A stretch of 64,000 nt of DNA from a virus: positions 32,001 to 96,000 of IMG/VR virus record IMGVR_UViG_3300044634_002329; one strand, given 5' to 3'. The position numbers and the translations under genes were made by a program. Shown here piece by piece: positions 6,358 through 24,368 of the stretch. Numbering within the stretch: position 1 is the first letter of the stretch; every line of letters starts with the position of its first letter. Below the pieces are notes generated by a model. The model was given only the letters and a program-made list of their open reading frames with translations. It was not told where the DNA came from and did no database searches.

Positions 6358-6368
6358 AAACCAACAAA
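6358..6368 (+). promoter_or_regulatory. AAACCAACAAA translation-initiation-region motif
   Basis: Abuts ATG 6369; identical copies at 9348 and 18047; exact complement of hairpin loop 21974-21984. Confidence 0.6.
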
Positions 6369-7631
6369 ATGTTTGAAGAAGAAAAAAAATCTGATAACCA
6401 GATTCTAGATGCTACAACGGTAGCACAAGTAGATGTAAACATTGATGAAATTTTTGGTGTACCTGGAGCAGAAAGTGTAATGCTTCCTGAAGATGGTAAA
6501 GAACCTGAAAAGCCAAAGTCAGTATTTACAAAAGAAACAGTAGATGTATCGTTCCTTGACAAGACAGTTAATACTCCTGATGATGTAGTGAGTAACAAAG
6601 CTGAAGTAGCAGAAACAATTGCTGAATTAGATGGTCTTATATCTCAAGAAGAAGATTCAGGTAACAAAGGAAGACCAAAAGTAGATAAGTCTGGTCTTAT
6701 GGAGTTAGCTCAAAAAATGATTGAAGATGGTGTTCTAGTTCCTTTTGCAGATGAAGAAGGAAATGAAATTCCTTTGGATAAATATACTACTAAAGACTTC
6801 AGAGAACTTTTTGAAGAAAACTTTCAAGAAAGAGAAAAAAAGATTAAAGAAAATACTCCAAAGGAATTCTTTAACTCTCTTCCAGAAGAACTTCAGATTG
6901 CTGCTAAATATGTAGCTGATGGTGGACAAGACATGAAAGGTCTTTTTAGAACATTAGCACAGATGGAGGAAATGATTCAATTAGATCCATCTAATGAATA
7001 TGATCAAGCAGAAATTGCTAGACAATATTTAACAGCTACTAACTTTGGTACTCCAGAAGAAATTGATGAAGAAATCAATGACTGGAAAGACATGGATAGA
7101 TTAGAACAAAAAGCTAATCAATTCAAACCTAAGTTAGACAGAATGCAAGAAGAAATTGTTGCAAAACAATTAGCAGAACAAGAACAGAAAAAAGAACAAC
7201 AAGCTAAAGCTGCTAAAGTTTATACAGATAATGTATACAATACACTATTAACAGGAGAAATAGGTGGGATTAAACTTGATAAGAAAACACAAGGTATGTT
7301 ATACTCAGGATTAGTTCAACCAAATTATTCTTCTATCTCAGGTAAACCTACAAATATGTTAGGTCACTTACTTGAAAAGTATCAGTTTGTAGAACCAAGA
7401 CATGATTTAATTGCTGAAGCTCTTTGGTTATTGTCAGATCCAGAAGGATACAAAACAAAGATTAAAGACCAAGGTTCTAAAGCAGCTACTGAAAAAACAG
7501 TAAGAATGTTAAAGACTGAAGAGTCTAGAAAAATTGCTTCAACTATAAATGAAGAAGAAGAAAAAAGAACAAATAAACCAAATAGAACAATACCAAGGGC
7601 TCAGGCCGGAAGTATGTTTAGAAGATTTTAA
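6369..7631 (+). CDS. acidic capsid assembly/scaffold-like protein
   Basis: Acidic disordered N-terminus plus coiled coil; located between portal and MCP as in crAss-like phages. Confidence 0.6.
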   Translation: MFEEEKKSDNQILDATTVAQVDVNIDEIFGVPGAESVMLPEDGKEPEKPKSVFTKETVDVSFLDKTVNTPDDVVSNKAEVAETIAELDGLISQEEDSGNKGRPKVDKSGLMELAQKMIEDGVLVPFADEEGNEIPLDKYTTKDFRELFEENFQEREKKIKENTPKEFFNSLPEELQIAAKYVADGGQDMKGLFRTLAQMEEMIQLDPSNEYDQAEIARQYLTATNFGTPEEIDEEINDWKDMDRLEQKANQFKPKLDRMQEEIVAKQLAEQEQKKEQQAKAAKVYTDNVYNTLLTGEIGGIKLDKKTQGMLYSGLVQPNYSSISGKPTNMLGHLLEKYQFVEPRHDLIAEALWLLSDPEGYKTKIKDQGSKAATEKTVRMLKTEESRKIASTINEEEEKRTNKPNRTIPRAQAGSMFRRF

Positions 7632-7662: not shown

Positions 7663-9279
7663 ATGGCAACTCCAGTTTTAAACAATGGTATATTCCTACG
7701 TGATACTGCTTATGCAGCTTCATCTCACGTAGATTCTTACCACTTAGTAAACATGCTTAAGGATGCTGAACCTATGGATTTAGGTCCGGTTGATCTTTGG
7801 GCTATGGCACAAAAGGTTGAAATGCCTCTTTACCAAATGTCTTCTTTCGGTGGAAAGAATGTCATTATGGTTGACAATGCTCGTGGAGAGTATAGATGGC
7901 AAACTCCAGTTTCAGTAGATCTACCTTACATTGTAGAGGACATTGAATCTGAAAATGATTTCAAAGGTATTGAAGGTACTACTTTCCGTATCAAGTTGAA
8001 CAAACGTGAGTTTGGACATGGTGATATTATCACTTATGACAAATACAACGGTGTTGAGATGTACATTACAGCTGAAGACATTCTTCCTATTGGAGATGGA
8101 TTTATCTATACTGTACAGTTGGTAAACAATGACAATTACAAATACTTGGATAACAAGTACTTGTCTAATGGTACAAAAGTTTTCCGTAAAGGTTCAGCTA
8201 GAGGTGAGTATGGTGAGAGATTCTCTGACATCATTACTAACACAGGTTTCCGTGAATTCTATAACTATGTAGGAGGTGCTGAAGCTCACGTACATTACTC
8301 TATCTCTTCTCGTGCAGATTTGATGATCAAAGGTGGAATGAATGCAGATGGTACAGTTCCTGTAACTGAAATCTGGAGAACATTTGACAAAAACATTGAT
8401 CCAGCAATTGCATCTTTGGATGATATGGTTAAGGTAATGGGTAAAGACAAAGTTAAAAAAGCATTTGACAATGGAGACTTGTCACGTACTTTCTTGACTA
8501 ACATGGAAGCTGCTCACTTAACAAAAATTGCAACGGATATTGAGACTTACCTTATGTGGGGACACGGAGGTAGAGTACGTCAAGATGGTCCAGATGATGT
8601 AAGATTGTCAGTGGGTCTTTGGAAACAATTGGATAACTCTTTCAAAAGAGTATACAATAAAAATAACTTTACATTGGATTTGTTCCGTGGAGAAATCTAC
8701 AACTTCTTCAATGGTAAAGTTGAGTTCCAAGGTCCAGATCCAAAAAGATCTTTGGTTGTACAAACTGGTATGGGTGGAATGAGAATGGTAAATGAAGCTA
8801 TCAAAAGAGAAGCAGTATCTTCTGGTCTTTTGATTCAAGCTGCTGATATCGGTGCAATCACTGGTAAAGGTATGGACTTGAACTTTGGATTTGCTTACAC
8901 TTCTTATGTTATTCCATTCTTGGCTAACGTGAAATTTGTATTGAATCCAGCATTTGACAATGTTCATACAAATGATATTGAGAACCCAATCATTGATGGT
9001 TTCCCATTATCTTCTTACTCATTCATTATCTTTGATATCACAGATAACACAAATGACAACATCTACATGTTGAAATTGTCTTGGGATAATCAATTGAAAT
9101 GGTGGTATCAAAATGGTACAATGGATTACATGGGTAGAACTCAAGGGTTCCAATCTTCTGGACAATTCAACGGATACCGTGTAATGATGTCTCAAACAAT
9201 GCCTGCTATTTGGGTTAAAGATCCAACTAAAGTATTAAAAATTGTTATGAGAAACCCAGTTACAGGTGGATCATTCTAA
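7663..9279 (+). CDS. major capsid protein (crAss-like)
   Basis: 538 aa; position after portal/scaffold; biased codon usage (ttc, aac, cgt) of a highly expressed gene; followed by terminator. Confidence 0.85.
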   Translation: MATPVLNNGIFLRDTAYAASSHVDSYHLVNMLKDAEPMDLGPVDLWAMAQKVEMPLYQMSSFGGKNVIMVDNARGEYRWQTPVSVDLPYIVEDIESENDFKGIEGTTFRIKLNKREFGHGDIITYDKYNGVEMYITAEDILPIGDGFIYTVQLVNNDNYKYLDNKYLSNGTKVFRKGSARGEYGERFSDIITNTGFREFYNYVGGAEAHVHYSISSRADLMIKGGMNADGTVPVTEIWRTFDKNIDPAIASLDDMVKVMGKDKVKKAFDNGDLSRTFLTNMEAAHLTKIATDIETYLMWGHGGRVRQDGPDDVRLSVGLWKQLDNSFKRVYNKNNFTLDLFRGEIYNFFNGKVEFQGPDPKRSLVVQTGMGGMRMVNEAIKREAVSSGLLIQAADIGAITGKGMDLNFGFAYTSYVIPFLANVKFVLNPAFDNVHTNDIENPIIDGFPLSSYSFIIFDITDNTNDNIYMLKLSWDNQLKWWYQNGTMDYMGRTQGFQSSGQFNGYRVMMSQTMPAIWVKDPTKVLKIVMRNPVTGGSF

Positions 9280-9295: not shown

Positions 9296-9331
9296 GGGAG
9301 AGATATTATGTTTCTCCCTTTATTAATTTTT
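9296..9331 (+). terminator. Rho-independent terminator after MCP
   Basis: GGGAGAGAT-loop-GTTTCTCCC stem followed by T-rich tract. Confidence 0.7.
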
Positions 9332-9347
9332 AAAAACCAATAATTAA

Positions 9348-17495: not shown

Positions 17496-18038
17496 ATGGC
17501 CAATCATGTATTAAGTTTAGAAGTACCTACAGTAATGAATTCTTGTATCTTAAAGATATTTGATACAAGTGTTTATAGTGATTTACTTCCAATAACTTGT
17601 CCAACATTAAATATTACGGTACCTGGTTTTGATTTTGCAAACCAGATAGATGTAACAGAAAACTTTTTTGGAACATATACAGCTTGTGATTTACAATTAC
17701 AAACAACTGATTGTGGTACCAGATATGTAGAAATACCAGATGGTATATACATTATTAAATATAGTGTTTCTCCTAATGATCAAGTATATGTAGAATATAA
17801 TCATATGAGAATTACTAAAGCATTAATTAGATACAATAAAGCATTGTGTGATGTTGATCTGTCTAATTGTGCACCTCCGGCTAAGTCTCAACAAAGATTA
17901 ACTGAGTTAGCTTTAATTAAAAGTTATTTAGAAGCAGCTAAAGCAAAAGTTGAATTTTGTCATGAACCACAAAAAGGTATGACTTTATATAATTATGCTC
18001 TTAGACTTTTAGATAAATTAGATTGTAGAAATTGTTAA
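17496..18038 (+). CDS. putative structural protein
   Basis: 180 aa; IPDGIYxIKYSV motif with helical, Cys-containing C-terminus. Confidence 0.5.
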   Translation: MANHVLSLEVPTVMNSCILKIFDTSVYSDLLPITCPTLNITVPGFDFANQIDVTENFFGTYTACDLQLQTTDCGTRYVEIPDGIYIIKYSVSPNDQVYVEYNHMRITKALIRYNKALCDVDLSNCAPPAKSQQRLTELALIKSYLEAAKAKVEFCHEPQKGMTLYNYALRLLDKLDCRNC

Positions 18039-18046
18039 AATATTTA

Positions 18047-18057
18047 AAACCAACAAA
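18047..18057 (+). promoter_or_regulatory. AAACCAACAAA translation-initiation-region motif
   Basis: 2 nt upstream of ATG 18060. Confidence 0.6.
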
Positions 18058-18059
18058 TT

Positions 18060-18242
18060 ATGGCAACATGTTCAAATTGTAAAGCAAACTTATCTTGTGG
18101 CTGTCAAAAAAGAACAGCTTCAGATAAAACATCTGTATGTTCAAACTGTCTTTCAAAATATGAAGCAAGTTTAAAAACTAGTACAGTTAAACCTGCTCCA
18201 ATCAGTAATCATATATGGGGAGCTAATAGATATAAAAAATAA
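18060..18242 (+). CDS. small Cys-rich (putative Zn-binding) protein
   Basis: CxxC...CGC...CxxC in 60 aa. Confidence 0.65.
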   Translation: MATCSNCKANLSCGCQKRTASDKTSVCSNCLSKYEASLKTSTVKPAPISNHIWGANRYKK

Positions 18243-18247
18243 AAAAA

Positions 18248-19720
18248 ATGGCTAAAGATATTTGTTATACTCTGTATCCTTGTGGAGACAATTACCCAGT
18301 TATATTTACAACTGATGATATACCAGGGGGTTTACTAAATACTCAAGTAACTATTGGTAATCCTAATCAATGTTATTGGTTAAGTACTAGTCCTCTTGGG
18401 CAATGCATAAATCCTATTAGTGTAACAATAACACCAGCAACTGATTGTTGTCCTTCTACTTGTTATTATGTACCAACAGGAGAGGTATTTTATATTAATG
18501 AATTAGGAGAGCAACATATTCAATTTGGTCCAATTCAATTTTGTTCTATTATTCAACCATTGTATAATAAAGGTACAGTAGTTATTAAATTAGGAGAATG
18601 TACTGAAGATGGTTGCCCATCATATTGTTACAAATTAGTAAACTGTGACGGTGTAACTGATCCTTTATATACTACTTCAGAAACTATGTTACCTTATGCT
18701 GTTGCAGGAACTACAGTAACTTTAATAGGGCAAGACGGATGTTGGGTACCTGAAATATCTGAAGATAATTGTGAGTGTGCTATTAATTTAATAGTTAATG
18801 AGACATTTGCTGATTGTTCAGAATGTATAGGTTATATTACATACAAACTTACAAACTGTAATGATAATACAGTAATATATACTAGTGATGATTTATCTAC
18901 TTATACAAATCAAACTGTAGAAATAGATCCATGTGATGGATGTTGGTTTGTAGAACAACTAGATTATCAAGGACCTTCTGATCAAACTGTTACAGTTACT
19001 CGTGTATTTGGTTCATGTGAAGCATGTAATAAAACATATTATGAATTAATTGATTGTGCTGGAATAGAACCATTTATTACTACTACTACAGATTTATCTG
19101 CACAACTTGGTAAGTTTATTACTTTAAAATGGTGTCCAGATGTATGCTGGGAAGTAACTGAAACAAGAGATGATTCAAATTCTACAATAGTATTTCCAAC
19201 AGGAGAATATGATTCATGTCCGGAATGTGCAATTGCTGTATTACCATGTGAATGTCAAACAGTAATAAATACGGGACTAACAGACACTTTAACTTATATT
19301 GATTGTACTGGAAATACAGTTAATATTACAGTTCCTATTGGACAAAGAAGTACTAAAATATGTGCTAAATTAATAGAGTCAACTCATGCAAATGTAATTA
19401 AATATGGTGATTGCATTAATGGTGTATGTCCTCCATTAGTTTATCCTAAAGCTACAATTATTCCTGGATACAATACACCTACATGTACTCCTGATAAATA
19501 TGAAGAAATAACATGTAGAGCTTCTGAAATACTTTATAAACAAGTTCTTCAAAGAAAATATGGTATTAGTAATTGTTGTCCAGAGGAAGACAATAAATGG
19601 TTACTTAAAAAAGAACTAATTGATATGGCAGCACTAGTTGATCCTGATTATACATGTGCTCCAAGTACTACTTGTAATTGTCCTCCATCTAATTGTAGTT
19701 GTAAGACTTGTAATTCTTAA
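18248..19720 (+). CDS. Cys-rich repeat structural protein
   Basis: About four repeats of YxLxxC...T..D....V.....C[WY]; C-terminal YGIxxCC and Cys-rich tail. Confidence 0.6.
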   Translation: MAKDICYTLYPCGDNYPVIFTTDDIPGGLLNTQVTIGNPNQCYWLSTSPLGQCINPISVTITPATDCCPSTCYYVPTGEVFYINELGEQHIQFGPIQFCSIIQPLYNKGTVVIKLGECTEDGCPSYCYKLVNCDGVTDPLYTTSETMLPYAVAGTTVTLIGQDGCWVPEISEDNCECAINLIVNETFADCSECIGYITYKLTNCNDNTVIYTSDDLSTYTNQTVEIDPCDGCWFVEQLDYQGPSDQTVTVTRVFGSCEACNKTYYELIDCAGIEPFITTTTDLSAQLGKFITLKWCPDVCWEVTETRDDSNSTIVFPTGEYDSCPECAIAVLPCECQTVINTGLTDTLTYIDCTGNTVNITVPIGQRSTKICAKLIESTHANVIKYGDCINGVCPPLVYPKATIIPGYNTPTCTPDKYEEITCRASEILYKQVLQRKYGISNCCPEEDNKWLLKKELIDMAALVDPDYTCAPSTTCNCPPSNCSCKTCNS

Positions 19721-19725
19721 TAATA

Positions 19726-19737
19726 ATTTGTATATTA
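19726..19737 (+). promoter_or_regulatory. putative phage promoter motif (ATTTGTATATTA)
   Basis: Intergenic, 17 nt upstream of ATG 19755. Confidence 0.45.
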
Positions 19738-19754
19738 TATTAATAGATAAAGAT

Positions 19755-21398
19755 ATGAAACCATTAAATTTAGATAATAAACCATGTAGTCCCACATCAT
19801 CTAATTGTGTGATATGGTCTGGAAGAAATCTTCCATGTATTAATTTATGTACAGGTGATACTGTCACAGATGTAATAGAAAAATTAGCTACAGAACTATG
19901 TACTATTATGGATCAGTTAGATATCTCTAACTATGATTTATCTTGTTTTAATATTACAGCATGTCCTCCATCTAGTTTTACTGAATTGTTGCAATTTTTA
20001 ATTGAACAAATTTGTGATAGTCAAGGAGTATCTACTACTGGTAAAACTTTATCTTCTGGATGCCCTGATTGTGTAGTTACAATGGCACCATGTTTTATTA
20101 CAGGAACACAAACTACAATGCAATTAGTAGATTATGTTAATCTAATTGCATATAGAATTTGTAGCATTAGTGCTGCTATTACAGACATACAAGCTCAGAT
20201 TGTAGATTTAGATGTTAGAGTAACTATTCTTGAAGATGCACCAACTCCTACATTTACATTACCAACTATTACTGTAAATTGTACATTACAAGATTCCCCG
20301 TTTATTGGAAATGGTGGTCCGGCCACAGCAATTGATTTAGTGTTAGATGCATTAGTTAATGATAATAAATATGGGTATTGTGCATTAAAATTTAGAACAG
20401 GAGAACCATCAGATATCTACACTGCTATAACAACTCAATGTATTCAAGATGGTGATTTTACTTTATCAAATCCATTAGTAACATATGCTACTGCATATTT
20501 TGGTTCTTGGATAGATACGGCTGACATAGAAAATCTAGCAAATTCAATTACTAATATTTGGATTGTACTTTGTGACATATATAATGCATTTAATAACATT
20601 ACAATTAATGTTACAAATACAGATACAGTAGAACTTACTTACGTAGGTGGAATATTATCAGCTGATATAACAGATACTGGTTGGCAACCATTAAACGGTT
20701 TTGATCATTATACAGGAACAATGGCTACACAAAAACCTGAAGCTAGAAGAATTGGTAAAGTAATTCATTTTAGAGGTGATGTAATTATACCTTTAGATAA
20801 CCCTACTATACCAGGTGTAGTTGTACCTTTATCTTTACCAACTTCTTATTATAATGAACAAGGTTGTACTCCATTTACAGGAGTTGGCGGTGTTACAAGT
20901 AATGCTTTATTAGGAACTATATTTTTTAATAACGGAGGTTCTGTAATTCCTACAACTGTATTAGATTCATTAATATTTCCAGATGGAGTATATACAATGG
21001 GTTGGGTAACAGGAGTAAGACCTATTGAATTAACCGGAACATATGGTACAAGTTTAACCAGTTCTTTTATTGTTGGTATTAATGCTAGTAAACAACTATA
21101 CATTTCAACATTAAAAGATCTTGAAAATTTATCTACACTAGCTCCTAACAATGTTACAGGAGGATCTCCATTAAGATATATTACTAGTAATGTAAAAGCT
21201 GGGGATTATGTTCCTAATTTTATTAATGCAGCATCTTATGTTAATAGTGTTTCTGCAACAGGAGTTAATAATATTACTACTGAAACTGATTTTTCTGGAA
21301 CAGATTTACAATGGACTTTTGATTGTGAAGCCGGTAATTCAAATAATTTAGGAGGATTTAGTTTTAGAATAGATGGTTTAATATCTTATATATTATAA
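19755..21398 (+). CDS. tail fibre/spike-like protein
   Basis: ATG 19755 (MKPLNLDNKPC) preferred; Cys-rich N-terminus with short coiled coil; DTGWxxL...RRIGxVIxxRG motif typical of fibre C-terminal domains. Confidence 0.55.
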   Translation: MKPLNLDNKPCSPTSSNCVIWSGRNLPCINLCTGDTVTDVIEKLATELCTIMDQLDISNYDLSCFNITACPPSSFTELLQFLIEQICDSQGVSTTGKTLSSGCPDCVVTMAPCFITGTQTTMQLVDYVNLIAYRICSISAAITDIQAQIVDLDVRVTILEDAPTPTFTLPTITVNCTLQDSPFIGNGGPATAIDLVLDALVNDNKYGYCALKFRTGEPSDIYTAITTQCIQDGDFTLSNPLVTYATAYFGSWIDTADIENLANSITNIWIVLCDIYNAFNNITINVTNTDTVELTYVGGILSADITDTGWQPLNGFDHYTGTMATQKPEARRIGKVIHFRGDVIIPLDNPTIPGVVVPLSLPTSYYNEQGCTPFTGVGGVTSNALLGTIFFNNGGSVIPTTVLDSLIFPDGVYTMGWVTGVRPIELTGTYGTSLTSSFIVGINASKQLYISTLKDLENLSTLAPNNVTGGSPLRYITSNVKAGDYVPNFINAASYVNSVSATGVNNITTETDFSGTDLQWTFDCEAGNSNNLGGFSFRIDGLISYIL

Positions 21399-21402
21399 TA
21401 TT

Positions 21403-21957
21403 ATGTCAACAAATAATACATGTAAAAAATGTGGATGTCAAGACCAAGCTTTGACTACACCAATAGTATACCCTACTCCGGCACCATGTCTTAAGCCGGA
21501 ACCATGTTCTGAAGCTTTTGATTCTCAATGTGTATATTATACAGGAGATGATATTATGTGTGGTACTGATATTGTAGTACATCAAGATGATACTATAGAA
21601 ACTGCATTAAATGATATAGTAGATTATTTTTGTACTAATGTCCCTGTACCAACAGCAAATATATTAAAAGTTACTATTAATAAAAATCTTTTAGATCCTT
21701 TAAAGTTAGATTCTACAATTGTAGGAGGTACAGGACCCTTTATATACAATTGGTCTATTGCTCAAAATGTATTTATGGGTCATAACTTTAATGGTTCTAC
21801 TACTATAAATAGTGCACTTTTTACTATAACTACTGATGGTATTCGCACTGTAAATGGAGATAGTTTATTTCAATCATTAATAAAGTTAGAAGTTACTGAT
21901 GTTAATGGAGCTTATGGTTCTGCATATTATACATTTTCAACAGTAACTGCAGGTTAA
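21403..21957 (+). CDS. Cys-rich structural protein with C-terminal beta-sandwich (PKD/Ig-like)
   Basis: CVYYTGxxIxC..GD motif shared with N-terminus of 19755 gene; GGTGPFxYxW...VTDxNG. Confidence 0.55.
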   Translation: MSTNNTCKKCGCQDQALTTPIVYPTPAPCLKPEPCSEAFDSQCVYYTGDDIMCGTDIVVHQDDTIETALNDIVDYFCTNVPVPTANILKVTINKNLLDPLKLDSTIVGGTGPFIYNWSIAQNVFMGHNFNGSTTINSALFTITTDGIRTVNGDSLFQSLIKLEVTDVNGAYGSAYYTFSTVTAG

Positions 21958-21966
21958 AAATATTAA

Positions 21967-22031
21967 GTTACAGTTTGTTGGTTTCTGTGACAACAAAGCA
22001 AAGCCCCTGCACTTGTAGGGGTTTTGTTTTT
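21967..22031 (+). ncRNA. candidate small regulatory RNA (hairpin with anti-AAACCAACAAA loop plus terminator)
   Basis: Stem GUUACAG/CUGUGAC with loop UUUGUUGGUUU; G-U pairs favour the + strand; ends in terminator. Confidence 0.45.
21997..22031 (+). terminator. Rho-independent terminator
   Basis: CAAAGCCCCTGC-ACTT-GTAGGGGTTTTG stem followed by T tract. Confidence 0.8.
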
Positions 22032-22064
22032 ATACTATCTTTACATTTGTTAAATACAGTAATT

Positions 22065-22076
22065 TTTAGTATATTA
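22065..22076 (+). promoter_or_regulatory. putative phage promoter motif (TTTAGTATATTA)
   Basis: After a terminator, 11 nt upstream of ATG 22088. Confidence 0.5.
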
Positions 22077-22087
22077 ATAGTAATAGT

Positions 22088-22669
22088 ATGAAAGAATGTA
22101 AAGCACCAGATGTAAAAGGACCACGTTATAGACCTGAAGTATATAATGTTTTAAACAAAGAGTTTTGTAATAATTTTAGAAAAAAATACCCAAAGTATAA
22201 AAACTTAGATAACATTACTATAAGAGCTATAATAAAACAATTTAATGAAACAATATATAATACAGTTATTGAAACAAGAGATGGTGTGCAATTACCTGAA
22301 TCTATTGGTTGGATATTTATAGGTACTTGCCAACAAAGTAAAAAAAGAAATATTGACTTTGCTAAGTCACAAAAATATGGAGTAACAGTTATAAATCAAA
22401 ACTGGGATTCAGATGGTAAGTTAGCTAAAATATTTTTTACTAGTTATGCATTAAAACACAAAATGAAGAATAGAGAGTTTTGGAGTTTTGTAGCTTGTAG
22501 AAATTTTAAAAGAAAAGTAGCTAAGACTTATCCTGAAAACTGGAACATGTATGTAGCAGTAGATCCAACAAAAAAAATAAATATGAATTATAGTAAAGCT
22601 TACTATAAAGATATAAAAGCTAAGGAAACTACTAAAGCTTTAAAAAACTATAATGAATTTGACTTATGA
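22088..22669 (+). CDS. HU/IHF-like DNA-binding protein
   Basis: Basic; two helices then GVQLPESIGWIFI arm motif; position before tail ring genes as in crAss-like phages. Confidence 0.6.
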   Translation: MKECKAPDVKGPRYRPEVYNVLNKEFCNNFRKKYPKYKNLDNITIRAIIKQFNETIYNTVIETRDGVQLPESIGWIFIGTCQQSKKRNIDFAKSQKYGVTVINQNWDSDGKLAKIFFTSYALKHKMKNREFWSFVACRNFKRKVAKTYPENWNMYVAVDPTKKINMNYSKAYYKDIKAKETTKALKNYNEFDL

Positions 22670-23331
22670 CAACAATTGGAGAAGCAATATCAAGAGTAAG
22701 GCACACATTAAAAGCAGTTAATGAAGATGCTTTTTTAACTGATAGAACCATATATTTTTCATTACTAAAGTATGCTAAGTCTTTAATTAAAAGAGAAGAC
22801 AATCAATTTAGATTAATGAAGATGAGTTCTATCTTTTCTACTTTACCATACATTGAATTGATTGATGTAGATAGAATAGATGCTGGATGTCTTGGTGTAT
22901 ATTCCGGATGTTACTTTAAAAGATCCAAAGATAAATTACCTGAAATACTAAATGGTATGTTTGGCCCTATTATACGTACAGCATCTTCAATAGATGGTAG
23001 TATAGAAATGTTTAGAACAGAACCAGGTATATGGAGTTCAATGACAAAGTCAACTACTTTTAGATATAACAAAAATAAATACTTTTGGTTTTTAGATGGT
23101 TATTTATATTTTCCTAATTTAGAATGGGATGCTGTAAGAGTAGAAGCAGTATTTGAAGGTAGACTAGATACATGTGAAACTAAAGATGATTGCTCATTAA
23201 AACAAGATCAAGTATTCTTTTTACCTGAATACTTATTTAGTGAAGTTGAACAATATGTAGTTAAAGAATTAACCATGACTATATCAGTTCCTACAAATGG
23301 TCCGGATGATAGTCAAAATGCTCAAAGATAA
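22666..23331 (+). CDS. tail ring/tubular protein
   Basis: 221 aa; YFWFLDGYLY motif; synteny upstream of tail stabilisation gene. Confidence 0.55.
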   Translation: MTTIGEAISRVRHTLKAVNEDAFLTDRTIYFSLLKYAKSLIKREDNQFRLMKMSSIFSTLPYIELIDVDRIDAGCLGVYSGCYFKRSKDKLPEILNGMFGPIIRTASSIDGSIEMFRTEPGIWSSMTKSTTFRYNKNKYFWFLDGYLYFPNLEWDAVRVEAVFEGRLDTCETKDDCSLKQDQVFFLPEYLFSEVEQYVVKELTMTISVPTNGPDDSQNAQR

Positions 23332-24368
23332 TGGATAGTAATTACACACTCAAATACAGAACTTTTGATCAACTCTTAGAAGATGTATCAATTGACTTTA
23401 GTACTTTTTCATTAGAGAATATGATTGAACCACAAACTCTAATTAAGTTAGCTAAAAAACTTAACTATGATTTAGGTCTTAGAATCAATCAAACTAGAGA
23501 AGCTATACTAGAAGTATGCCATAGTAGAGTTAAGTTACCAGATGACTTCTATACCTTTAATTACGGTATGATCTGTGGTGAGTATACAGTATTAACCGGA
23601 TATGATAGAGGTGGGACTAATATTCAAGAAATTCCATATAAAGAATTTCCTAGTACATTTGACCAATGTGCTGTACCTACAGTAAATTGTAGAACATGTA
23701 ATTCTAACCCATGTAACCATACAGCAGCATGTTTAGATAATGTTCCTCCAACTAATGTTATACCTACAGAATATGACCCTAATAATCCTTATGGTGATAC
23801 TTGCATTAAACCAAGAGTCTTTATGAACTGTAAAGGTGAACAATATGAACTTGTACAAGTAGTAAGCACATCTAATATTAGAACATATAAAAACATGCTT
23901 CCTTTTAGAATGATATCTAGTCAAGAGATTGAATGTGATTGTCCAAATCTTTATTATAATACTAGTAATCAAGGATGGATAAAAAATGGATTTTTATTTA
24001 CTACTTTTGAAGAAGGAAAAGTTTATATAAATTATCAAGGTGGAATGGAAGACGAAGACGGTAACTTATTGGTACCGGATCATGACTTACTTAATGAATA
24101 TTATGAGTATGCTTTAAAACAAAGAATACTTGAAAATCTTTATATGAATGGTGAGGATGTATCACAAAGAATGCAACTAGTAGAACAAAGAGTTAAAGCT
24201 GCAAGAAACCAAGCATTAACTTTAGTTAATACTCCAAACTTCCAAGAAATGTATAAACTGTGGTGGACTAATAGAAGATCACAATACAGTAAATATTATG
24301 ACATGTTTAAATCACATGCACCAGATAATGATTTTTATAGACGTTTTGGAAATAAAAGAGTAATTTAA
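23331..24368 (+). CDS. tail ring/tubular protein
   Basis: KLPDDF and GKVYINY..MEDEDGNLLVPD motifs; Cys-rich central insertion; TAATG coupling. Confidence 0.55.
   Translation: MDSNYTLKYRTFDQLLEDVSIDFSTFSLENMIEPQTLIKLAKKLNYDLGLRINQTREAILEVCHSRVKLPDDFYTFNYGMICGEYTVLTGYDRGGTNIQEIPYKEFPSTFDQCAVPTVNCRTCNSNPCNHTAACLDNVPPTNVIPTEYDPNNPYGDTCIKPRVFMNCKGEQYELVQVVSTSNIRTYKNMLPFRMISSQEIECDCPNLYYNTSNQGWIKNGFLFTTFEEGKVYINYQGGMEDEDGNLLVPDHDLLNEYYEYALKQRILENLYMNGEDVSQRMQLVEQRVKAARNQALTLVNTPNFQEMYKLWWTNRRSQYSKYYDMFKSHAPDNDFYRRFGNKRVI

Follow-up and report, generated by a model that had tools for sequence, protein, structure and literature searches.

The DNA analysed here, called the window, is a stretch of 64,000 nucleotides, bases 32001-96000 of an IMG/VR virus record that is 119,985 bp long and has direct terminal repeats. 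The genome is that of a crAss-like phage, with a gene at 7663-9279 for a Crassvirus major capsid protein (E 3.9e-31); crAss-like phages form an abundant, poorly understood phage order. Positions are those of the window unless the genome is named. Tail ring protein 2 is encoded at 22666-23331 and tail ring protein 1 at 23331-24368, followed downstream by giant ORFs of 2231 and 5256 aa. The genome has a G+C content of 30%, its leaders consist of 50% A, and Shine-Dalgarno (SD)-like tetramers occur in only 3 of 146 leaders. Judged by ring protein 2, the nearest cultured relatives are phages of Flavobacterium and Cellulophaga, for which reason the host probably belongs to the Bacteroidota; one relative is recorded on the cyanobacterium Leptolyngbya. 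Bacteroidota are reported to have mRNAs without SD sequences (PMC6847099). The locus of interest lies at the junction between the tail-fibre block and the ring protein genes and contains the following features.

21403-21957, plus strand: upstream late gene of 184 aa with a Cys-rich N-terminus and no family match; the hairpin lies in its 3'UTR
21967-21973, plus strand: 5' arm of the hairpin, GTTACAG, read directly from the sequence
21974-21984, plus strand: 11-nt loop TTTGTTGGTTT, composed of G and U only, the exact reverse complement of the leader box AAACCAACAAA; its core TTGTTGGT is nearly invariant in relatives
21985-21991, plus strand: 3' arm of the hairpin, CTGTGAC; a single U-G wobble makes the stem strand-specific
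21992-21997, plus strand: A/C-rich linker AACAAA, which together with C21991 reads CAACAAA and is able to pair with the 5' half of the loop
21995-22031, plus strand: intrinsic terminator with a 16-bp stem (21995-22010/22015-22030, pairs between A-tract and U-tract included), the loop ACTT and a T-run; the stem covaries in relatives
22042-22076, plus strand: conserved promoter-like block of the next operon, TACATTTG followed by ATTTTTAGTATATTA at 22062-22076, the latter the same in all relatives printed
22088-22669, plus strand: downstream gene of 193 aa, of no known family, used as the query for fetching relatives; the crAss tail ring proteins 2 and 1 follow

A preliminary description made from the letters of the window had proposed that the hairpin is a small RNA of the phage. 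The 7-bp stem GTTACAG/CTGTGAC with its 11-nt loop was found exactly where that description had placed it, and the strong terminator starts 3 nt further on. The terminator is of the intrinsic type, with a U-tract behind its stem-loop on the transcribed strand, and 13 of its 13 pairs covary in relatives. The stop codon of the upstream gene occupies 21955-21957, the hairpin begins 10 nt later, at 21967, and the last base of the terminator is near 22031, the arrangement of an sRNA derived from a 3'UTR. In keeping with the proposed 3'UTR origin, the 3' end of the 184-aa gene is not conserved and varies among relatives, and upstream of the element there is no conserved sequence fit to serve as a promoter for it. 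The reported lack of a minus-strand ORF holds for both strands: no ORF of at least 40 aa covers 21958-22087. Folded alone, the hairpin reaches -7.4 kcal/mol (z -1.6), a value equalled in 16 of 200 shuffles, and together with the terminator -30.8 kcal/mol (z -5.6). Since the stability of the hairpin by itself is ordinary in this single sequence, its significance comes from conservation rather than from energy. An alternative fold, in which the 5' half of the loop pairs with the linker CAACAAA, was rejected: the main hairpin makes up 0.60-0.84 of the ensemble, and relatives retain only AACA-like remnants of the linker.

The element does not correspond to an annotated RNA. A search of the whole window against Rfam release 15 at gathering thresholds gave no matches, and a permissive scan of 21900-22100 gave at best 26.1 bits against a threshold of 55, all hits being generic terminator-bearing leaders or sRNAs. 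ARAGORN predicted no tRNA genes in 21500-22500; the word GUUGGU resembles tRNA D-loops. A distant-mode blastn search with window positions 21000-23000 found no match in the phage collection.

Relatives were collected in two sets. The close set consists of 80 IMG/VR loci retrieved with the 193-aa downstream protein (62-73% identity), the distant set of 80 diverse loci retrieved with a profile of distant homologues of the same protein (an alignment of 12 sequences). The best 120 of 881 protein homologues are 67-94% identical and belong to the close clade only. A search of viral contigs for related loci with the proteins P0121 and P0133 returned nothing. The hairpin occupies the same place in 79 of the 80 close loci; the 80th ends at its contig edge. 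With a covariance model derived from the close clade, the element was recognized on the plus strand of the window and of 73 of the 80 distant loci, to which inspection by eye added two, so that more than 150 loci carry it overall. An inserted extra gene often puts the element some 1.4-1.5 kb upstream in the distant loci. This gene, between the hairpin-terminator and the 193-aa gene in many distant clades (L267-L338), encodes a protein with the conserved C-terminus ...YWHYHNKF.G.KRQA...GK.SEF.... Viral contigs were also scanned for ATTTTTAGTATATTA; most of the matches listed are unrelated, and among these listed matches 17 of the 19 that bear a terminator belong to the same clade and have the same loop.

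Among the 52 distinct sequences of the close clade the loop core TTGTTGGTT(T) is invariant, and every variation of the stems preserves pairing on the plus strand. The preliminary description had noted that the G-U pairs work on this strand only, and indeed 52 of 52 sequences fold better as the plus strand than as its complement (means of -7.8 and -1.3 kcal/mol). In the distant loci the stems are wholly different and the loop is the same. Over all relatives, it is presented by stems as unlike as GTTACAG/CTGTGAC, GTCACGG/CGTGAC, AGGAGG/CCTCC and GCTGTGA/CGCAGC. Over 58 distinct sequences, in an alignment that was fitted to the model and that holds one spurious minus-strand row, 93.7% of the cells are paired compared with 72.7% in shuffles, and double changes occur at 20 of 20 pairs. 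The covariation score of these 58 sequences is 0.588 against 0.218 for shuffled alignments (none of 500 shuffles scored as high), and controls with slid positions scored at most 0.12. In the MFE folds of 44 of 57 distinct sequences no base of the loop core is paired, and the unpaired probability of the core averages 0.81. The alignment of relatives that the preliminary description had proposed as a check thus bears out a conserved loop on a covarying stem, and the hairpin is a deeply conserved RNA element without an Rfam family. As a separate observation, none of the 52 close-clade stems is fully Watson-Crick. Each has at least one G-U wobble at a shifting position (U3-G, G4-U or G6-U), and a perfect stem is one transition away, yet the wobble is kept.

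The sequence to which the loop is antisense lies in front of virion genes. As the preliminary description had stated, the exact reverse complement of the loop precedes the start codons at 6369, 9362 and 18060, with gaps of 0, 3 and 2 nt. The copies in the window are arranged as follows.

6358-6368, plus strand: box AAACCAACAAA, abutting ATG 6369 (gap 0) of an acidic 420-aa gene directly 5' of the capsid gene
9334-9344, plus strand: degenerate second box AAACCAATAAT in the leader of the post-capsid gene, in tandem with AAACCAACAAA
9348-9358, plus strand: box AAACCAACAAA, 3 nt before ATG 9362 of a 338-aa gene directly 3' of the capsid gene
18047-18057, plus strand: box AAACCAACAAA, 2 nt before ATG 18060 of a Cys-rich gene of 60 aa, the first of the tail-fibre block; the block ends at the hairpin

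The exact 11-mer AAACCAACAAA thus occurs on the plus strand at 6358, 9348 and 18047 and, as the loop itself, on the minus strand at 21974. Four matches in the window compare with 0.10 expected, and none of 100 shuffles reached four. The whole genome contains one further plus-strand copy, at genome position 29284, 11 nt before ATG 29306 of a 154-aa gene, and no copy of the reversed pattern that served as a control. All four sense copies lie 0-11 nt before start codons, and a copy with one mismatch, AAACCAACACA, adjoins the ATG of a minus-strand gene. Degenerate versions of the box are not enriched (65 matches at up to two mismatches versus 63.3 expected). The 14-of-16-nt complementarity that had been reported for 6369 is present; it uses bases of the stem, however, and because the stems vary this extension is not conserved.

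The box is conserved before the same genes. Among the homologues in ten genomes, AACCAAC stands before the pre-capsid gene and the post-capsid gene in all ten and before the Cys-rich gene in 7 of 8. AACCAAC also precedes a minus-strand gene in 5 of the 10 genomes, and the capsid gene itself never bears a box in any of the ten. In five more distant genomes, whose capsid protein is 83-85% and whose 193-aa protein is 37-46% identical, ACCAAC precedes all three genes, save that the Cys-rich gene of G022 is identified solely by its position. The proteins encoded by the box-bearing genes gave no PHROG or Pfam matches and no significant PDB sequence matches; the 420-aa pre-capsid product is scaffold-like by its position and acidic composition only.

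Leaders rich in A and C might be expected to contain such a word, and the preliminary description had proposed comparing its frequency near starts with this background. AAACCAACAA occurs in 2-9 copies in 20 of 20 related records, compared with 0-3 copies of the reversed word. No other 10-mer is as common in the -30 to -1 leaders of ten full genomes; 27 of the 59 occurrences of AAACCAACAA lie there and ten more are the hairpins. When the 35 permutations of A4C3 were counted in the -25 to -1 leaders of the ten genomes, AACCAAC was found 45 times, two words overlapping it 42 and 35 times, and each of the remaining permutations at most ten times. The box is therefore a specific word and not a reflection of the A/C-rich bias of the leaders. 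In G002, G005, G006 and G007, AAACCAACAA has a second conserved site on the strand of the early genes; it falls within an ORF of 134-136 aa and was set aside as coding.

Some further observations concern the leaders of these genes. In several relatives, the post-capsid leader contains two perfect AACCAAC copies, and a C-to-U variant in the tandem box could still pair with the loop by G-U wobble. Directly 3' of the capsid gene, at 9296-9318, the hairpin GGGAGAGATATTATGTTTCTCCC is followed by a T-run. It is a likely terminator, which places the box-bearing post-capsid gene behind a terminator. Behind the terminator at 21995-22031, within 22042-22076, is a promoter-like word, TTT(A/T)GTATATTA, identical in all relatives printed. 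The second commonest 10-mer in the leaders of the ten genomes is TTAGTATATT, with 22 leader occurrences. A similar word, TTTTGTATATTA, lies about 13 nt upstream of the pre-capsid box in relatives, which probably places this box near the 5' end of a primary transcript.

Whether the box serves as a translation signal of the host at large was examined in bacterial genomes. A scan of bacterial genome contigs for the box followed by ATG gave at least 120 matches; among the 80 titled ones of the matches listed, the position resembled a gene start in 5 of 25 Bacteroidota and in 0 of 56 others. An even sample of 100 Bacteroidota genomes contained 160 matches to box plus ATG compared with 115 to the reversed word; of 29 matches that were retrieved, 4 looked like gene starts. 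With an enrichment this weak and so few start-like positions, a role of the box as a general translation signal of Bacteroidota was rejected. One bacterial gene start, in Maribellus mangrovi (locus L355), has the tandem box AAAACCAACTAAAACCAACAAAATG, like the post-capsid leader of the phage.

The predicted duplexes of the loop with six leaders of G000 range from -12.4 to -10.5 kcal/mol; the next leader reaches -8.6 and the median is -4.0, and only 0.03% of random windows attain -12 kcal/mol with the loop. Within the IMG/VR relatives no covariation between loop and box can be seen because both cores are invariant there. The flanks of the loop do vary in G021 (TTTAGTTGG) and G022 (TTAAGTTGG), and the matching U is present in 1 of 9 and 1 of 5 boxes, respectively, so that the boxes do not follow. 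More divergent phages give divided answers. Cellulophaga phage phi4:1 has an 11-bp hairpin with the loop UUUUUUGGUUUUU and a terminator at the syntenic junction between tail fibre and ring protein 2; its covariance-model score is marginal (E 0.3) and its placement syntenic. Leaders of phi4:1 contain AACCAAA (4) more often than AACCAAC (1), the boxes being A-rich and of a kind that arises easily. The best of 195 loop-leader duplexes in this phage is that of the post-capsid gene (AAAACCAAAAA), the pre-capsid gene is tied at ranks 6-7 and a tail-fibre gene is also among the top seven. Phage phi4:1 hence displays the matching G-to-U/C-to-A change expected of pairing, in a single lineage and with genes equated by position only.

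In Leptolyngbya phage Lbo-JY46 (PP438436.1), whose capsid protein is 28-29% identical, a syntenic hairpin with the loop UUUGUUGGUUG was recognized with 31.3 bits (E 3.4e-5). The pre- and post-capsid genes of this phage have no ACCAAC box, and their duplexes with the loop reach -6.0 and -7.2 kcal/mol; a single AAACCAATAAAA box precedes a 73-aa gene. Since Lbo-JY46 keeps the loop without the boxes that flank the capsid gene, these boxes alone do not explain the conservation of the loop. The evidence that loop and boxes change together is accordingly mixed, as the expectation holds for phi4:1 and fails for the flank variants and for Lbo-JY46. A search of 40.6 kb of Flavobacterium phage FpV4 gave no hairpin. 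Many intergenic regions of Lbo-JY46 (L526-L528) contain the TA..TTTG-like words TATCTTTG, TATATTTG and TACCTTTG about 15-25 nt before start codons. Such words correspond to the -7 promoter type of Bacteroidota, yet a cyanobacterium is given as the host in the record.

A conserved single-stranded seed thus faces conserved complementary sites: the loop consists entirely of G and U and the boxes entirely of A and C, and the boxes lie 0-12 nt from ATG. We suggest a model, to which we give about an even chance, in which a base-pairing RNA derived from a 3'UTR masks a translation-enhancing leader of virion genes. Hairpin and terminator would be produced, as a non-coding RNA, from the 3' end of the late transcript that covers the tail-fibre genes, and this 3' fragment would accumulate. 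Its single-stranded G/U loop UUUGUUGGUUU would pair in vivo with the box AAACCAACAAA in short leaders that lack SD sequences. Predicted targets are the scaffold-like pre-capsid gene, the post-capsid gene, the small Cys-rich gene and two or three others. As the pairing would cover the region where ribosomes land, its most likely effect is a damping of target translation as late transcripts build up. A closed 11-nt loop cannot make all 11 pairs without strain or opening of the stem. The box itself may enhance translation, as suggested by the scarcity of SD sequences (3 of 146 leaders) and by analogy with what PMC3879156 and PMC6847099 describe. The preliminary description, which had postulated a trans-acting translation regulator of assembly genes, is partly supported: conservation, specificity and complementarity agree with it, and the regulatory function stays a prediction from sequence. 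Those of its refuting conditions that can be checked by computation, on loop conservation and on motif frequency near starts, were decided in its favour, whereas nothing speaks specifically for its variant of a guide for translation in an SD-free host. The candidate regulon of the element is well defined.

Another reading is that the loop is recognized by a conserved protein or by an RNA of the host, such as the ribosome, a tRNA-related molecule or an RNA-binding factor, and that its complementarity to the boxes is secondary; the loop could, for example, mimic a cellular RNA normally contacted by the boxes. It would account for a loop core that has stayed fixed as far as Lbo-JY46, where the stems have been rewritten and the boxes flanking the capsid gene are gone, for loop flanks and box flanks that do not covary, and for the G-U pair, at least one of which is found in every stem variant and which could be a recognition feature. 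It is difficult to see, however, why without pairing the two most conserved non-coding words of the genome should be exact complements over 10-11 nt, or why loop and box should show a matching change in phi4:1. The weak enrichment of the box in 100 Bacteroidota genomes (160 versus 115), with 4 of 29 at gene starts, means that the box is not a general host signal for which a mimic would compete, and the partner of the loop would itself be only putative. We consider this reading rather unlikely.

The constant position of the hairpin, always a few bases before a terminator at the junction of tail-fibre and ring protein genes, including those of Lbo-JY46 and phi4:1, and with a promoter-like block next to it, would also suit an element that acts in cis at the 3' end of the mRNA. 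Such an element might determine the efficiency of termination, read-through into the operon of ring, cargo and virion RNA polymerase genes, or protection of the mRNA 3' end. Arguing against this possibility is the invariant 10-nt loop, as a helper of termination or stability needs a stem and not a particular loop. Nor does it give a reason for complementary boxes at start codons kilobases away, one of them before genes on the opposite strand. A cis-acting role thus appears unlikely.

The hairpin RNA might instead promote translation, as an adaptor supplied by the phage that sits on the host 30S subunit, or as a mimic of rRNA, with the loop recruiting box-bearing phage mRNAs. The RNA would then be a trans-acting stand-in for the contact between SD and anti-SD that Bacteroidia ribosomes cannot use, and such a role would account for a loop that stays unchanged between lineages, also in those that lack the boxes flanking the capsid gene. 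We regard this reading as very unlikely.

The 11-mer could also be bound as double-stranded DNA by a protein of the phage or of the host, for example a regulator of late genes, in view of its presence in both orientations and of the flanking inverted repeat, which is readable as an operator. The arms, however, never form a perfect DNA palindrome and pair only as plus-strand RNA through G-U (52 of 52), the rewriting of stems with pairing kept is the behaviour of an RNA, and the boxes are always in sense orientation, 0-12 nt from ATG, also before minus-strand genes, which is too close for a promoter or activator site; a DNA site is highly improbable. A chance or compositional coincidence between an A/C-rich leader word and a U/G-rich loop, for which the modest stability of the hairpin alone (z -1.6) and the 50% A of the leaders might speak, is refuted by four observed matches versus 0.10 expected, by more than 150 loci, by the A4C3 permutation control and by covariation, and has a negligible probability.

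The proposed masking of virion gene leaders by a base-pairing RNA has counterparts in known systems. Closest is GcvB, whose G/U-rich single-stranded seed is directed against A/C-rich elements just 5' of the starts of many mRNAs; PMC3879156 describes A/C-rich (ACA) elements of this kind in leaders as enhancers of translation initiation, which the GcvB seed silences by pairing. The phage element has no homology to GcvB in sequence or structure and, unlike GcvB, presents its seed in a hairpin loop. It is encoded by a phage, its putative targets are phage virion genes with leaders lacking SD sequences, and no chaperone is known. CpxQ, SroC, DapZ and MicL represent a type of base-pairing sRNA derived from the 3'UTRs of enterobacterial mRNAs. 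With them the element shares its position at the 3' end of an mRNA, the use of the intrinsic terminator of that mRNA, a short conserved seed and several, here predicted, targets; it differs in being viral, known here from sequence, and in probably belonging to a Bacteroidota host. To our knowledge, Bacteroidota lack Hfq. RNAIII and the Rsa RNAs of S. aureus use C-rich UCCC hairpin loops to mask SD sequences. They, too, have a conserved hairpin-loop motif antisense to the ribosome-loading signal of several mRNAs, whereas the signal here is an A/C-rich box and not an SD sequence, the loop is G/U-rich and there is a single hairpin. In the temperate phages P1 and P7, the c4 antisense RNA governs a single immunity operon. 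It resembles the proposed RNA in being cut from an operon transcript of a phage and in directing short exposed segments against phage ribosome-binding regions; the predicted targets here are, by contrast, virion genes of crAss-like phages of the lytic type, spread over about 25 kb. No account of an element of this kind in crAss-like phages, or in Lbo-JY46, was found in the literature searched, in agreement with the earlier statement that no such system has been described in these phages.

If the pairing is real, the element would be the first defined riboregulator of crAss-like phages and its targets their first defined translational regulon. It would also represent a natural form of post-transcriptional control where ribosomes ignore the SD sequence, the masked site being an A/C-rich enhancer instead. 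The element is short and sharply defined and occurs, without an Rfam family, in more than 150 environmental phage loci. Its presence in at least two cultured phages, phi4:1 and Lbo-JY46, makes it directly testable, and in genome annotation it is useful as a landmark of operon boundaries. A different repeated sequence marks another part of the genome. On the minus strand of genome positions 17784-20903, about ten short ORFs (51-143 aa) each lie behind a near-identical TTATAACTTT(T/A)TAAGTA, and these repeats look like an array of early promoters.
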